Of a stretch of 44,580 nucleotides of DNA, positions 2,876-8,191 are shown piece by piece. The notes beneath the pieces are model-generated. The model was not told the DNA's origin, made no database searches, and saw only the letters and a list, made by a program, of their open reading frames with translations. Both the position numbers and the translations under genes were made by a program. Source of the DNA: a virus (taxonomy: Duplodnaviria; Heunggongvirae; Uroviricota; Caudoviricetes); the IMG/VR virus record IMGVR_UViG_2534682161_000019; one strand, 5' to 3'. Each line of letters begins with the position of its first letter. Position 1 is the first letter of the stretch.

Positions 2876-5359
2876 TTAAAAATCAGCCTGACTCGGGATC
2901 AGTTTTTGTATTGTAGCTGTAACGTATTTTGCCTGGTGACGGGCGTCATCCAGTGCATTGTGGTGCACGCCTTCGAATGGAATAACGGTTCTGGCATCAA
3001 AGTCGATTGTTTTTCCCAGCTCAACGATTGTGCGTACATCGCGATCGTTGTGGTAGCGCCACGGGCAGGGGATGTCCAGACGTTCGTATGAGGTGCGCAA
3101 AATTGCGTTATCGAAAGTTGCACCATTACCCCATACCTGAACGAATTTTTCATCTGAGTATTCGTTGATGAACTCCCGAAACCGCGAAAGGGCATCCTTC
3201 AGTTTTACCTGGTCTGTTAAAATGGCAGCTCTGGCTTCACTGGACTGCTTCAGCCACCATTCGATGGTTCCACCGTCAGGAACAGCCCCTGTATTCATTG
3301 CGTCAGTCAGACTGATAACGATATAAAATACTGGCCCGATTTCCCCTGTTTGTGGGTCGAAGAAAACCGCACCAATAACCACGATGGGCGCATTGGTGTT
3401 GGTTCCCATTGTTTCAAGGTCGATCATCAGGTGGTACCACACTCTGCTGGTGGATGTGATAACGTGATGACCGTTCACCGCAATTAAGGGATCTGCCGTC
3501 TCGCCAGTTTCATTATCGCTGGCGTGGTCCTGAGCGCTGCCAGCATTCTCCTTGTGTGGATGTTCAGCGCCTTCCATTTCCTCCGGATCATTTTCCTGAA
3601 CTTCAACCTGATTCTCTTCATCGAATGTTTCCTGGTATGTTGCGTCGCCCATCACCGCACCACAATCAGGGCAGTTGCCGCCGCCGGTCTGACCGCAGGC
3701 GGTGCAGACTTTTTCCGCTTCCTGTTGCGCTACTGGCTCAGGTTGTTTCGTTTCTGGCTCGTTTTGTAACGCATTTGGGCTGTTTTGTTCCGCGTTCTGG
3801 TCGTTCTGTTCCGTTTCTTGCTGGTTCTGATTCACAGAATCGCGGGTTTCAATCCCCTTCACCCATTTCGGATCATTCGGGTCGCTAATCCCTGCAACAA
3901 ATTCACTACGTGATACAGCAAGCAACTTATCGGCGTCAGGCTGGCTGATATTGGCTGCCTGCATAATTTTGTTTACTTCGTCAGCGGTAACTTTTACCGG
4001 CTCCGGTTGTGCGATCGTGTCAGATGCACCAGTATTTTGTTGTGAACCTGAGTATGTACCGTTTTTGCGGGCAAAATATTCTTCTTTCGTGATTTCAGTA
4101 GCCCCTGCAGCCAGCGCCTTATTCAGACCAGAAAGTTTGTTTGCACGACCGTATTTTTCGCCATCCTTGTCGGTGAAGAGGAAGTAGAACGGCCCCTCAC
4201 GCTCTACAGATGATTCGACTTCCACTTTGCATTCGGTTTTTTCGTTGTCGTGAATTGCCGTTTCCACTGCGTCAGTTTCTGGTACTGGCGACGAGAGAGT
4301 ATTAGCTGTGCCCTGATTTGTTCCTTCGTCATCTTCAAACACGCCCTTTGTAGTCAGGTATTCAGTGATGTATTTGTTCAGTGCCACGGGATCTTTGTGA
4401 ATGTCGATCGGGCGTTCACGGACAAGGCCAAAAATAGTCTGGCGGCTGTAGCGAAGCGCATCAGGTTGTTTGCGCATTGATGCGGAGATGCGCTTCCAGT
4501 CTTCGCGATCTCTGGCGATAACTTCATTTTTAGCCCAGCGAAGGATGCTGCCGTCAATGTTTCCGGCATCCGCATCACCAGGCCAGAGATAGTAGGCCAG
4601 CTCCCTGTCCAGGGTTTTCCATGTCTGCTTGTATTCGCGATGAATGGCGGCAGTTACAGGAGGGATTTTTTCTGCTGGGTTTTCAGTGTGCTGTCGGTTG
4701 GCTTTGGCGCGGGCAAGATCAACAACAGACGTGTATTTTCCAGTCTCTTTGCGCTCTGCGTCCTGCCGTTTTTTCCAGTTACGTAATTCAACCTGAATTT
4801 CGGGCCATTTGGTACCCGGCTTACATTTGTGTTTAACCCATCCGATAGCGAACAGTTTGCGTTCCGGATACATAGCGTTAATTTCAGGCGTTTTCATCAG
4901 TGCTTCAACGATATGCCCGTCAAAGGTAGCCACGTCTTCTTGCAGTAATTCCTGCGCGTCAATCGCCATATCAACGGTGATGTTTTCACATGTACCGAAC
5001 TTAACCAGGACCGCGTTCTGTACTTCAAGGGACAGCTTGTCAAAATTGACGTTAATAGGATCGGATTCTGGTTCGACCGGAATAAAGGAAGCGGATTCCT
5101 CATCCCAGTGGTTTTCCTGCATATATTCGGTATCCCAGGAGTCGATAGCAGGGCGGGGCATGCCGGGTTTATCTTCGCAGACAAGAAATTTATAAGCGCA
5201 GTCCTGAGCAGCAGGATATTGCTCCAGGAATTGCCAGGTAAATTTGGCACGGGCGCGGCGTTCATCACCGGCTTCAATGGCAGTGGCTACAGCAACTGCG
5301 CCCTCTTCTTTTATTGCCTGTTCGTCCGGAATGGCGGCGCAAATAAAGACTTTACTCAT
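2876..5359 (-). CDS. large early-region protein with C-terminal DnaQ-like (DEDDh) 3-prime-5-prime exonuclease domain (type often annotated exodeoxyribonuclease VIII-like in E. coli prophages)
   Basis: 827 aa; C-terminus carries Exo I (MIDLETMGT), Exo II (WGNGATFDNAIL) and Exo III (HHNALDDARH) motifs; Cys4 ribbon CTACGQTGGGNCPDCG; low-complexity Q/N/E-rich linker. Confidence 0.7.
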   Translation of the reverse strand: MSKVFICAAIPDEQAIKEEGAVAVATAIEAGDERRARAKFTWQFLEQYPAAQDCAYKFLVCEDKPGMPRPAIDSWDTEYMQENHWDEESASFIPVEPESDPINVNFDKLSLEVQNAVLVKFGTCENITVDMAIDAQELLQEDVATFDGHIVEALMKTPEINAMYPERKLFAIGWVKHKCKPGTKWPEIQVELRNWKKRQDAERKETGKYTSVVDLARAKANRQHTENPAEKIPPVTAAIHREYKQTWKTLDRELAYYLWPGDADAGNIDGSILRWAKNEVIARDREDWKRISASMRKQPDALRYSRQTIFGLVRERPIDIHKDPVALNKYITEYLTTKGVFEDDEGTNQGTANTLSSPVPETDAVETAIHDNEKTECKVEVESSVEREGPFYFLFTDKDGEKYGRANKLSGLNKALAAGATEITKEEYFARKNGTYSGSQQNTGASDTIAQPEPVKVTADEVNKIMQAANISQPDADKLLAVSRSEFVAGISDPNDPKWVKGIETRDSVNQNQQETEQNDQNAEQNSPNALQNEPETKQPEPVAQQEAEKVCTACGQTGGGNCPDCGAVMGDATYQETFDEENQVEVQENDPEEMEGAEHPHKENAGSAQDHASDNETGETADPLIAVNGHHVITSTSRVWYHLMIDLETMGTNTNAPIVVIGAVFFDPQTGEIGPVFYIVISLTDAMNTGAVPDGGTIEWWLKQSSEARAAILTDQVKLKDALSRFREFINEYSDEKFVQVWGNGATFDNAILRTSYERLDIPCPWRYHNDRDVRTIVELGKTIDFDARTVIPFEGVHHNALDDARHQAKYVTATIQKLIPSQADF

Positions 5360-5452: not shown

Positions 5453-5644
5453 TTAAAGTCCTGCCGGTATTTCGTTATTATTAGTGTGAGTAGTTTTATC
5501 TACCGGATAACAGTTACCGGGAATTTTTTGTTCTGCTGCTGCAGCCATGCATTCTTTCATTGAACCGTATAAGCCAGTCACCAGCTCAAGAGATTCGCCG
5601 GAAACAAGATAAACTGTCAGAACGAGTGCAAATGTTGTATTCAT
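5453..5644 (-). CDS. hypothetical small protein (hydrophobic N-terminus)
   Basis: 63-aa ORF in the leftward early operon, stop overlapping the next gene start (ATGA). Confidence 0.4.
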   Translation of the reverse strand: MNTTFALVLTVYLVSGESLELVTGLYGSMKECMAAAAEQKIPGNCYPVDKTTHTNNNEIPAGL

Positions 5645-5829
5645 TGTTTATATCCTTTTTGCAGCAGGTCCAGACGAGCCAGCATTGAAGGAATGCATAC
5701 TTCATTTAACAGGTCCTGCTCGAGTTTTCTCTGCTTAATGGCGTCTTCAATAAATGTTTTGTCTCCAGTGATAACGCCAATTTCGAAACGAAGTTCAGAC
5801 GTGATGGCATTACATGATAACTTTTCCAT
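5641..5829 (-). CDS. hypothetical small early protein (RacC-like position)
   Basis: ORF track gives 5641-5934; the internal ATG at 5829 (MEKLSCNAITSELRFEIG...) is preceded by a GAGGA RBS whereas the 5934 start has none, so the shorter start is preferred. Confidence 0.4.
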   Translation of the reverse strand: MEKLSCNAITSELRFEIGVITGDKTFIEDAIKQRKLEQDLLNEVCIPSMLARLDLLQKGYKQ

Positions 5830-6406
5830 TATCGCGTCCTCAACAATGAATTTTGTGATGCGGTGCCTGGTGCCTCCAGGTGACGTTAACCAGTTAACAA
5901 TTAACGCCGGATACAGAGAATCCACCCATAACACTGTTTTTGGTTTTAACTGTTCCGCGTGCGCTGAGCCGCATTCACCGCATCACAAAATTCACTTTTA
6001 AAAAAGGGCGGCAGAGCAGTCACGGAGTAAAACTGATACCGCCAAATGTCACCAGAATATTGATAACAGAGGGCGTTGTAGCGGGGTTGTCACTTAAGCG
6101 TATGGTCAACCTGACAACCCGGTGTCCTCAACGGGGAAAGGCGTCCCTCCCACCCCCGCCATACTTACCGCCGCGCCATTTCGCGGGTCGCCACAACCGG
6201 AAGCGCACGGTCGAATTAAATTTAACGACACCGTGCAGTGAGACGAACTTCGCCGTGCGCTTTCGTGTTGTGTGCCTGCTTTTAACCACGTCAGGCGAGG
6301 TGGTTTCCGTCATTCCCCAACGACAGGAAATCTGTATAATCTGGGTATCCCCAACGATCCAAGGAAATCATATGACAGAGCAAAGAGCACAAGCAGGTGA
6401 TGGTGT

Positions 6407-6613
6407 ATGGACCGGGATGATATTCTTGACAGAATTTTTTATGGCTATTTTCTTGAGCAACTGTTTTCTGTAGCGACTGGTCGTCTCGATAAACTTCTCT
6501 CAGTAGTGAGTATTATCCTCGGTTCATCTGTCATTGGCGGATTCATTCCGGAAATTTCTGGCGTTTTTATTGTTGTGATCGCAACCGTCCAAACGATTTA
6601 TGGATTCGGATAA
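6407..6613 (+). CDS. hypothetical small membrane protein (rightward ORF inside the leftward early region)
   Basis: 68 aa with a long hydrophobic stretch LLSVVSIILGSSVIGGFIPEISGVFIVVIATV; opposite orientation to flanking genes, as sieB is in Rac. Confidence 0.3.
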   Translation: MDRDDILDRIFYGYFLEQLFSVATGRLDKLLSVVSIILGSSVIGGFIPEISGVFIVVIATVQTIYGFG

Positions 6614-6628
6614 AAGTCAGGTAATACC

Positions 6629-6853
6629 ATGAGAAAATCCGCAGAATATTTGCAGCTTTTTGATGATGCAGAAAAATATTCTGATTCGGAATTGAAAATT
6701 CAGTTAAAAACTCTGGAAAAAACAGATAATCATATTTGGTCATCACTTAAAGATATTGCGATCTTAAAAACACAGATCAAAATAGGCGTCTCCATCGAAC
6801 AACAAGAGAAGTTGCCCACAAAATCCAAATTGATGCGATTTCTTTGTGGTTAG
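6629..6853 (+). CDS. hypothetical protein, same frame as 6407-6613 and separated from it by one stop codon
   Basis: 74-aa ORF; ATG 15 nt after the preceding TAA. Confidence 0.3.
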   Translation: MRKSAEYLQLFDDAEKYSDSELKIQLKTLEKTDNHIWSSLKDIAILKTQIKIGVSIEQQEKLPTKSKLMRFLCG

Positions 6854-6942
6854 GAATATCCAGATTGTTAAAGAGCATGCCGGAGGTTTATCCGTGTCCG
6901 GCGCACGCACTTCATCTGCGGAGAACTACTTGAGCTCATTGG

Positions 6943-7158
6943 TCAGTAGTTTTCAATCACTCGCGAAACGTTTAATGCCGCGCTTTTTGCCAGAGTGGTA
7001 ATATCCTGCTCCGCTGACACCAGTTCTTTAGAGAGGCGCTCTTTGTAGTCAGCGGCCTGCTTCAGGTCATTAATGGCGCGTATCTTTCCGCACATCCATT
7101 CGTAAATTTCATCCTCGGTATAGTCTGGTGCGATGATGACGGGTTCTCGTTTCTGCAT
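6943..7158 (-). CDS. hypothetical early protein
   Basis: 71-aa ORF in the leftward operon. Confidence 0.4.
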   Translation of the reverse strand: MQKREPVIIAPDYTEDEIYEWMCGKIRAINDLKQAADYKERLSKELVSAEQDITTLAKSAALNVSRVIENY

Positions 7159-7187: not shown

Positions 7188-7316
7188 TCAGTCGTTAGAT
7201 TTTGCCGAACTGGAAAGCGCCTGTTTAAACTCACTGAAGCTGAGAGCTTCTTCGCCTTCGGCAAGGCCTTCGAAGTATTCTTCGTAAGCCTTTTCCATGA
7301 TTGCGTCGAAATCCAT
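7188..7316 (-). CDS. hypothetical small acidic protein (42 aa)
   Basis: Not in the ORF track (under 60 aa); ATG at 7316 preceded by AGGTGAG RBS; MDFDAIMEKAYEEYFEGLAEGEEALSFSEFKQALSSSAKSND; fits tightly between flanking leftward genes. Confidence 0.35.
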   Translation of the reverse strand: MDFDAIMEKAYEEYFEGLAEGEEALSFSEFKQALSSSAKSND

Positions 7317-7317
7317 A

Positions 7318-7554
7318 TCACTCACCTGAATTTCTTTCCAGCCAGCGACGCGCGCCAGCTTCGGTTTTAAACGTTTTGCTTCTGGTATACGTCATCGCGG
7401 TGAACGTGCCGTCCTGGTTGGGAAACACGCCGTACACCAGAGATTCGTTGTTGCCAAGATCGATAGTATCCATGCTGACCTCATTTCCCCTTAACGCCGG
7501 GGTAGCGGAACAAAAACCTGCTGCATAGTTATTAAAGTTGAACCCTGCCGTCAT
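7318..7554 (-). CDS. hypothetical protein, first gene of the leftward early operon
   Basis: 78-aa ORF; an alternative start at 7473 (MDTIDLG...) has a GAGG RBS; not Arg-rich, so not an N-like antiterminator. Confidence 0.4.
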   Translation of the reverse strand: MTAGFNFNNYAAGFCSATPALRGNEVSMDTIDLGNNESLVYGVFPNQDGTFTAMTYTRSKTFKTEAGARRWLERNSGE

Positions 7555-7771: not shown

Positions 7772-8191
7772 TTAAGAGGCTTTTTGTTTTTTCTTTCGTG
7801 CTAACTCTTCGTAAATTGCATTGTACTTTTGTTTTTTCTCCTCAAGAGTTTTTAAAAGTTCATCTGTCTCACTGTCAGGGAGCTCGTCCAGAAGATCAAT
7901 GATGATTTTTTGTCTTGGATTTAACTCCTGATAGAAACGTACCTGTCCACTTTCTTCTGTATCCTCTCCCAAAAGATAGGTTGGTGTTGTTCCAATGAGT
8001 GTTGCTAATTCCCTTAATTTCTCTCGGCGAGGAATTGTTTCGCCATTAAACCATTTGCTAACCGCTTTTGGTGTTAATTTCATTCGACGGGCAATTTCTG
8101 CCTGCCTTCCATGTTGTTCATAACCAGCGTTTTCACAGGCTAGCGCAAGCCTACTGGCGAACTCTTTACGCGCTTTATCTTCATGAACCAT
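7772..8191 (-). CDS. prophage repressor, HTH XRE family (RacR/DicA-like, no S24 peptidase domain)
   Basis: 139 aa; N-terminal HTH (...QAEIARRMKLTPKAVSKWFNGETIP...); acidic C-terminus; divergent from a Cro-like gene. Confidence 0.7.
   Translation of the reverse strand: MVHEDKARKEFASRLALACENAGYEQHGRQAEIARRMKLTPKAVSKWFNGETIPRREKLRELATLIGTTPTYLLGEDTEESGQVRFYQELNPRQKIIIDLLDELPDSETDELLKTLEEKKQKYNAIYEELARKKKQKAS

Follow-up and report, generated by a model that had tools for sequence, protein, structure and literature searches.

What are three small open reading frames (ORFs) doing on the plus strand of a lambdoid prophage, embedded in its leftward early operon? The DNA in question is the IMG/VR record IMGVR_UViG_2534682161_000019 (Caudoviricetes; 44,580 nucleotides [nt], here called the window in its entirety), a lambdoid prophage of the Rac/Qin-like type. 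An original prediction, made from the letters alone, placed the ORFs at the position that the exclusion gene sieB holds in Rac and proposed either a degraded sieB-like gene or a small, toxin-like membrane-protein module expressed in the lysogen. All three ORFs were found where it had put them: one with an ATG at 6372 that is preceded by AAGGAA and comprises 33 codons plus a stop (6372–6473), one of 68 amino acids (aa; 6407–6613), and one of 74 aa (6629–6853). Our analysis makes it probable that these ORFs are the wreck of a conserved prophage cassette, that intact copies of this cassette specify a lysogen-expressed abortive-infection or exclusion effector under the control of a proline-rich micro-ORF, and that the copy in the window is dead.

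The split gene and its homologues

The 68-aa and 74-aa ORFs share one frame, as had been predicted, and are interrupted only by the stop TAA at 6611–6613 and five sense codons. Hydropathy analysis located two hydrophobic segments in the 68-aa ORF, at approximately residues 29 to 46 and 49 to 68, linked by a Pro-Glu turn, and an AlphaFold model agreed on two transmembrane (TM) helices; the anticipated small hydrophobic membrane protein was thereby recovered as an N-terminal fragment consisting of a helix and a TM hairpin, while the 74-aa fragment begins at an internal Met75. Read past the TAA, the sequence is 98 to 99% identical to an intact 148-aa coding sequence (CDS) of other Escherichia coli genomes. 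A megablast search with positions 5900–7000 retrieved the whole region from 72 of 5,426 complete E. coli genomes (best identity, 99.6%), and in the homologous prophages of strains 06-00048 and 2013C-4991, RefSeq annotates a single intact 447-nt CDS for a hypothetical protein that spans both ORFs (the accessions of the intact proteins are WP_065226626.1 and WP_000373334.1). Judged from this comparison, the two ORFs are one 148-codon gene on the plus strand (6407–6853, here called the main gene), split by a CAA-to-TAA change at codon 69, which encodes Gln in intact alleles and lies directly past the second TM helix.

The fragments might still be made separately, as a 68-aa two-TM peptide and a 74-aa soluble fragment that together would constitute a small membrane toxin with its partner in the lysogen. 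The internal ATG at 6629, just 15 nt past the stop, has an AGG 7 to 10 nt ahead of it, and many assemblies retain the allele, its exact products of 68 and 74 aa being found in 52 index blocks. However, the neighbors were identical at every sampled place, and the context and gene order common to all sampled TAA-allele loci are consistent with one prophage lineage. Moreover, Met75 is not conserved in relatives at 60 to 68% identity, the lineage has also lost the micro-ORF described below, one of its members (L008) carries an insertion sequence in the 3′ end of the gene, and an independent frameshift (L126) reveals the same background decaying. We therefore regard two functional fragments as decidedly unlikely. 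The insertion in L008 (6408–7729; a transposase with HTH_Tnp_1 and rve domains) affected a gene that was already broken by the nonsense codon. Programmed readthrough of the TAA at 6611–6613 was also considered and was dropped, as there was no evidence for it. With the micro-ORF destroyed, the coupling lost, and the protein truncated after the second TM helix, the window copy is most likely an inert, non-functional pseudogene; a residual 68-aa two-TM peptide may still be made.

The intact protein belongs to a family for which 139 members at E<1e-3 emerged when 1.84 billion cluster representatives were searched with a profile, most of them 140 to 190 aa long and the others shorter fragments; a word-indexed search recovered close relatives only. 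The named members derive mostly from Enterobacterales and are all hypothetical proteins without a Pfam domain. In the GenBank collection of cultured phages, only Providencia phage PSTNGR2lys and Elizabethkingia phage EKP1 carry a homologue. Scans of both fragments and of the intact protein against Pfam, NCBIfam, and PADLOC gave no match above threshold. In PHROGs, the intact protein matched phrog_6315 from end to end (E = 7e-24), but this family has no assigned function and hence provides a label rather than an explanation.

Pairwise ratios of nonsynonymous to synonymous substitution rates (dN/dS) of the main gene ranged from 0.03 to 0.1, and its reading frame is conserved among family proteins at 20 to 45% identity. 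These values bear on the suspicion that the ORFs arose by chance and that the conserved signal resides on the minus strand, in the precursor of the small RNA (sRNA) DicF or in an antisense RNA. The leader element described below may indeed act on the minus strand, and sieB of phage P22 is controlled by a cis-antisense RNA, sas (PMC12197685). Nevertheless, strong purifying selection in the plus frame, frame-preserving conservation at such low protein identity, and a confident structure based on coevolution refute this explanation for the main gene, and we give it almost no weight.

Fold of the main protein and its place in the sieB slot

The AlphaFold model computed from 100 homologues reached a predicted local distance difference test (pLDDT) score of 95.2 and a predicted template modeling (pTM) score of 0.86, whereas a model from six sequences only had a pLDDT of 69. 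It features a long N-terminal helix running into the first TM helix (residues 3–44), a second TM helix (48–65), and four more helices. Based on this model, the intact protein (148 to 160 aa) is predicted to reside in the inner membrane, where an N-terminal helix leads into a tight two-TM hairpin, followed by a C-terminal helical domain on what is predicted to be the cytoplasmic side. When the model was compared with BFVD by Foldseek, SLATT-annotated proteins accounted for 10 of the 17 top matches, including the best one, and most of the others were unnamed. The SLATT matches had Foldseek probabilities of 0.82 to 1.0 (at least 0.95 in 9 of the 10) and query-normalized template modeling scores of 0.42 to 0.67, the top matches having values of about 1.0 and 0.5 to 0.67, respectively. 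At the level of profiles, NCBIfam SLATT_4 matched 26 of 100 family members at E<0.01 (best, 2.2e-5) and the family consensus at 4.3e-5 (23.4 bits), colinearly over both TM helices and the next helix, and the PADLOC model of reverse transcriptase-associated SLATT proteins, RTasSLATT, gave an E value of 0.013. Collectively, these data point to a divergent SLATT-like two-TM fold of the main protein. A search for a solved SLATT-like structure, against which the fold could be compared more strictly, found none.

SLATT proteins are SMODS and SLOG-associating 2TM effectors. They contain two or three TM helices and are described as putative pore formers that serve CBASS, RADAR, and UG/Abi-DRT systems as effectors or accessories (PMC9226505; DRT10 preprint). 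The family resembles them in its two-TM hairpin flanked by helices, in size, and in its mobile-element or defense context. In contrast to SLATT systems, it has a translationally coupled proline-rich micro-ORF in place of a cyclic-nucleotide synthase, a SLOG protein, or a reverse transcriptase, and its gene holds a fixed slot in lambdoid prophages. No paper tying SLATT to superinfection exclusion was found in the literature, and HepS and PANGU are unrelated systems.

The fixed slot is the one that had been predicted, in position as well as in orientation. The order in Rac of K-12 is kilR (minus), the kilS sRNA (minus), sieB (plus), and ydaF/DUF1391 (minus), and the corresponding order in the window is dicB (minus), DicF (minus), the main gene (plus), and ydfC/ydfB/DUF1391 (minus), with a leader common to both. 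Distant family members at 20 to 45% identity, from Enterobacter, Klebsiella, Advenella, and PSTNGR2lys, likewise lie antisense to the early-left operon, flanked by kil-type genes on one side and by the repressor on the other; the Klebsiella gene adjoins KilR and exonuclease VIII, and the PSTNGR2lys gene sits between bet and cI.

SieB aborts the lytic growth of superinfecting phage, and self-immunity is provided by Esc, which is made from an internal start. Whether the main gene is a decayed true homologue of SieB is a fair question, since SieB of Rac, lambda, and P22 occupies the same place on the prophage map against the early-left operon and since sieB in Rac adjoins a gene for an FtsZ inhibitor with an sRNA and a DUF1391 gene and is preceded by the same two-helix leader element. 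SieB is also a small inner-membrane protein of similar size and architecture, with two N-terminal TM helices and a helical C-terminal part. However, there is no detectable sequence kinship: BLASTP of the main protein against Rac SieB gave an E value of 0.29, hhalign gave a probability of 0.4%, and the Pfam SieB model (PF14163), which scores Rac SieB at 1.5e-31, matched neither the fragments nor the intact protein nor any of 100 family members. Furthermore, Rac sieB has no proline-rich micro-ORF, and the main gene has no conserved internal start of the Esc type, Met75 being variable as mentioned above. Homology to SieB is thus largely refuted at the sequence level, and we consider it very improbable; as far as SieB is concerned, the lack of similarity that the original prediction had named as refuting is what we observed. 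The "degraded sieB-like gene" of the original prediction is indeed degraded, by one nonsense codon in a gene that is intact in relatives, but it does not appear to descend from sieB, and the similarity that could be detected is instead a weak one to the SLATT effectors of defense systems.

Literature searches on hotspots at the sieB slot and on KilS yielded nothing further. Conflict genes accumulate in this slot: in Advenella-type contigs (L023 and L024, 6749–7949), a gene with a SocA/Panacea domain and an MqsA-like antitoxin gene adjoin the module, and genes for a DNA methyltransferase and for an ATPase of the AAA_15/AAA_21 type come next.

The proline-rich micro-ORF and the leader element

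About 100 loci from viral and genome collections were examined for ORFs upstream of the main gene, a scan of genome contigs contributing only five of them. In nearly all of these loci, a short ORF of 25 to 52 codons ends just ahead of the main ATG. Among 48 distinct loci that do not belong to the E. coli-type group, 46 encode a product with at least five prolines in the last 22 residues; when all ORFs of 22 aa or more from these loci are taken as a control, the proportion is 2.4%. The micro-ORF is also intact in 32 E. coli-type loci. Forty distinct peptides could be aligned on the approximate motif [DE]x[FY]xxH[MIV]P-x3-[RQ]PxPxP[KE]. Substitutions in the micro-ORF are concentrated at third codon positions (e.g., 407/294/823), and its dN/dS of 0.05 to 0.6 indicates that the peptide itself is under selection, albeit weaker than that on the main protein. 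The stop codon lies inside or against the Shine-Dalgarno sequence of the main gene (TGAGG, TAAGAGG, aggTGA), and of 39 distinct cases, 34 have a gap of 6 to 15 nt to the main ATG and the others one of 24 to 25 nt; read from sequence, this is the architecture of translational coupling. The micro-ORF accompanies only SLATT-like cargo and is absent where the leader precedes sieB or another cargo gene. In PSTNGR2lys it has been annotated (QPB11296.1, MLKVNYASQGDIVPNHLNPKPIRPTPPPPSTPSDGGKK), and a PHROGs scan of the proline-rich peptides assigned them to no family. Ribosome stalling at PPP was considered as a conserved feature and was dropped, because many of the peptides alternate xP without consecutive prolines. 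Right after the SLATT-like gene of an Enterobacter prophage, there is a second proline-rich ORF (L016, 5440–5556; …MSKPIPIIPNHVPPKPRPPAPKKQGTL) that is not followed by a coupled gene and may be left over from a tandem module.

What, then, is the ORF at 6372? The micro-ORF alleles of E. coli have 48 or 52 codons, and alignment with L090 and L002 revealed that the ORF in the window shares its first nine codons, MTEQRAQAG, with the intact 48-codon form. The window and a few relatives lack 118 nt between imperfect 13-nt direct repeats (CAAGCAGGTGRTG), the junction being located at approximately 6391–6403. This deletion removed the proline-rich part and shifted the frame, and the stump consequently runs 67 nt into the main gene. 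By these alignments, the 34-codon ORF (6372–6473, plus strand) is the stump of the conserved partner micro-ORF, an identity that the original prediction had missed while noting the ORF itself.

The fates of the two genes appear to be linked. Among E. coli-type loci, both are intact in 32; the micro-ORF is deleted in front of an intact main gene in 6 and in front of a broken one in 16, and a broken main gene behind an intact micro-ORF was not found (0 loci). The 16 broken loci represent the nonsense-69 lineage and the one independent frameshift in L126, and both lesions fall only in the micro-ORF-deleted background. This pattern is suggestive and would fit either relaxed selection after the module had been disabled or selection against an uncontrolled effector. 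We found what characterizes a two-gene module, a small upstream gene that is coupled to and co-conserved with a downstream effector. Like type II toxin-antitoxin and abortive-infection pairs, it shows this gene order, tight coupling, and decay of the downstream gene only where the upstream ORF is lost. Unlike type II systems, its upstream product is a proline-rich peptide of 25 to 52 aa without a DNA-binding fold, and six loci tolerate loss of the upstream ORF with the downstream gene intact.

Upstream of the micro-ORF, nearly all family loci share a 34-nt leader element with two overlapping helices, located about 100 nt ahead of the micro-ORF start and 180 to 235 nt ahead of the main ATG. Across 26 distinct versions of the element, 94 to 95% of the cells are paired, versus 81% in shuffles and 25 to 46% with slid partners, and double-sided changes affect 7 to 8 of the 10 pairs. 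The same element and its flanking block precede sieB in Rac of K-12 (L003, 4567–4601), and in Klebsiella loci the element (L020, 5526–5556) also stands ahead of a different cargo, a 113-aa gene. A lone copy lies between ydfC and dicF in Qin of K-12 (L025). The window has two copies. Copy a (6272–6305) forms the helices GCCTG (6274–6278)/CAGGC (6292–6296) and CCAC (6286–6289)/GTGG (6300–6303). Copy b (6877–6910), with the helices GCCGG/CCGGC and CGTG/CACG, marks the right edge of the cassette, has no cargo behind it, and is of the type found upstream of the micro-ORF in Klebsiella-type loci.

Rfam gave no match for the leader element. When read on the minus strand, it would form a sterically canonical H-type pseudoknot with a loop 1 of 1 to 3 nt and an A-rich loop 3 of 7 to 8 nt, whereas on the plus strand the two helices could only alternate; counting of G-U pairs was evenly balanced, with 94.4% paired on one strand versus 95.2% on the other. 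Given sas at sieB of P22, a sas-like antisense RNA transcribed from the leader is a lead.

Between the element and the micro-ORF, an alignment of 49 upstream regions revealed a conserved stretch on the plus strand (6310–6371), in which two repeats of the form YCCCCAACGA...GGAAAT (6314–6331 and 6348–6368) flank a perfect TATAAT (6335–6340). The second repeat contains the AAGGAA ribosome-binding site of the micro-ORF. Each repeat can form a small hairpin, the second of which would sequester this site, and both repeats contain ACA(A/G)GGA motifs reminiscent of CsrA sites; their counterparts ahead of Rac sieB differ in sequence. A terminator scan found just two terminator-like sites, both inside ORFs and at chance level. 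In Klebsiella-type loci, an intrinsic terminator (AGCGTCCTGCGGGGCGC followed by T8; L020, 5500–5525) ends the SLATT-like gene; the sequence ATTGTTAAAGAGC, conserved ahead of it, is kept at 6864–6876 of the window, where the terminator itself is missing.

Proposed role and genomic setting of the cassette

The position of the intact cassettes, their interchangeability with sieB, and the SLATT-like fold suggested an effector role. We propose that an intact cassette would be expressed from the prophage and that the main protein, once triggered, would perturb the inner membrane, resulting in abortive infection or superinfection exclusion. The micro-ORF would control the synthesis or the activity of this effector, serving as a leader for translational coupling or, alternatively, as a neutralizing partner. 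In the window, the 118-nt deletion removed the proline-rich part and broke the coupling, and the CAA-to-TAA change truncates the protein after the second TM helix.

Several observations weigh against this proposal. The BFVD matches have E values of only 6e-3 to 0.2, and helical hairpins are folds for which matches come easily. The SLATT_4 score of 23.4 bits compares with a curated cut-off of 55 and is below every curated threshold, and Pfam SLATT matched neither the family members nor the intact protein; as all SLATT scores remained under curated thresholds, we term the family SLATT-like and not a SLATT member. No SMODS/CD-NTase, SLOG, or reverse transcriptase gene was found near the E. coli, Enterobacter, Klebsiella, Advenella, or Providencia phage loci, which leaves a stand-alone SLATT-like protein without a known trigger in the neighborhoods examined. 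A consensus promoter scan detected no full sigma-70 site, the TATAAT at 6335–6340 having no acceptable −35 sequence. Finally, the main gene has stayed intact in six loci despite deletion of the micro-ORF, which speaks against a strictly required antitoxin, and as only two independent inactivation events were observed, the link between loss of the micro-ORF and decay of the main gene is suggestive at best.

The missing sensor partner and the lack of any match above threshold in defense libraries would also suit intact members that serve the phage itself, as a holin-like or lysis-timing protein, as a membrane anchor, or as a regulator of dicF/dicB by convergent transcription, and the cassette does lie antisense to the DicF precursor transcript. 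However, the gene opposes the lytic early operon, as known lysogen-expressed exclusion genes do, it and sieB occur interchangeably behind one and the same leader, and its closest fold and profile matches are defense-associated SLATT proteins. A phage-serving role is therefore unlikely in our view, and an exclusion or abortive-infection effector remains the preferred explanation. More tentatively, and with the odds rather against it, a stand-alone SLATT-like effector that is gated by a coupled proline-rich micro-protein and exchangeable with sieB behind the leader might represent a widespread unrecognized prophage immunity module. The micro-protein could then report on the state of translation or on EF-P dependence, or it could be a labile neutralizer, and the leader may encode a sas-like antisense pseudoknot RNA.

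The surroundings of the cassette are those of a leftward early region. On the minus strand, the window encodes a RecE-like exonuclease (2876–5359), a DUF1482/ydfD-like gene (5453–5644), dicB (5641–5829; 62 aa; Pfam DicB, 3.4e-37), and DicF (6006–6057; Rfam RF00039, full length, 77 bits, E = 1.6e-16), and, to the right of the cassette, a ydfC-like gene (6943–7158), ydfB (7188–7325), a DUF1391/ydfA-like gene (7318–7554), and a helix-turn-helix repressor (7772–8191), beyond which cro/ydaS-like and ydaT genes point rightward. A 97-codon minus-strand ORF (5641–5934) is an over-extended dicB, as the DicB match is confined to its last 62 residues and relatives are annotated with a 189-nt gene. The minus strand of the interval of about 1 kb that had been described as lacking leftward ORFs is not empty, since it encodes DicF, whose location makes the interval part of the leftward ydfABC-dicF-dicB operon. 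The cassette interrupts the operon in antisense between ydfC and DicF/dicB, and the precursor transcript of DicF is antisense to it. Downstream of DicF, in the dicB leader, a match to STnc100 (5852–5992, minus strand) stayed below threshold, with 37 bits against a gathering score of 47. Qin of K-12 is homologous to the window from dicB through DicF to approximately 6275 and again from approximately 6878, with no gene in between. The cassette of leader, micro-ORF, and main gene (plus strand, approximately 6276–6878) hence corresponds to about 600 bp that were either inserted in the window lineage or lost in Qin.

The result for the window itself is an ordinary one, a pseudogene; the interest lies in the family behind it. 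This family, its proline-rich micro-ORF, which annotation pipelines mostly miss, and the shared leader appear to be undescribed in the libraries searched, and a candidate membrane effector is present, unannotated, in about 1% of complete E. coli genomes and across prophages of Enterobacterales. Our results suggest that in Rac-, Qin-, and lambda-like prophages, different cargo genes are exchanged at the sieB slot behind a shared, covarying leader. Its antisense position relative to the DicF/dicB precursor also makes the cassette relevant to how DicF expression data from pathogenic E. coli are interpreted. Should the module protect against phage, it would comprise a SLATT-like effector without a nucleotide-signaling sensor, and the activation of SLATT proteins would become testable in a two-gene system.

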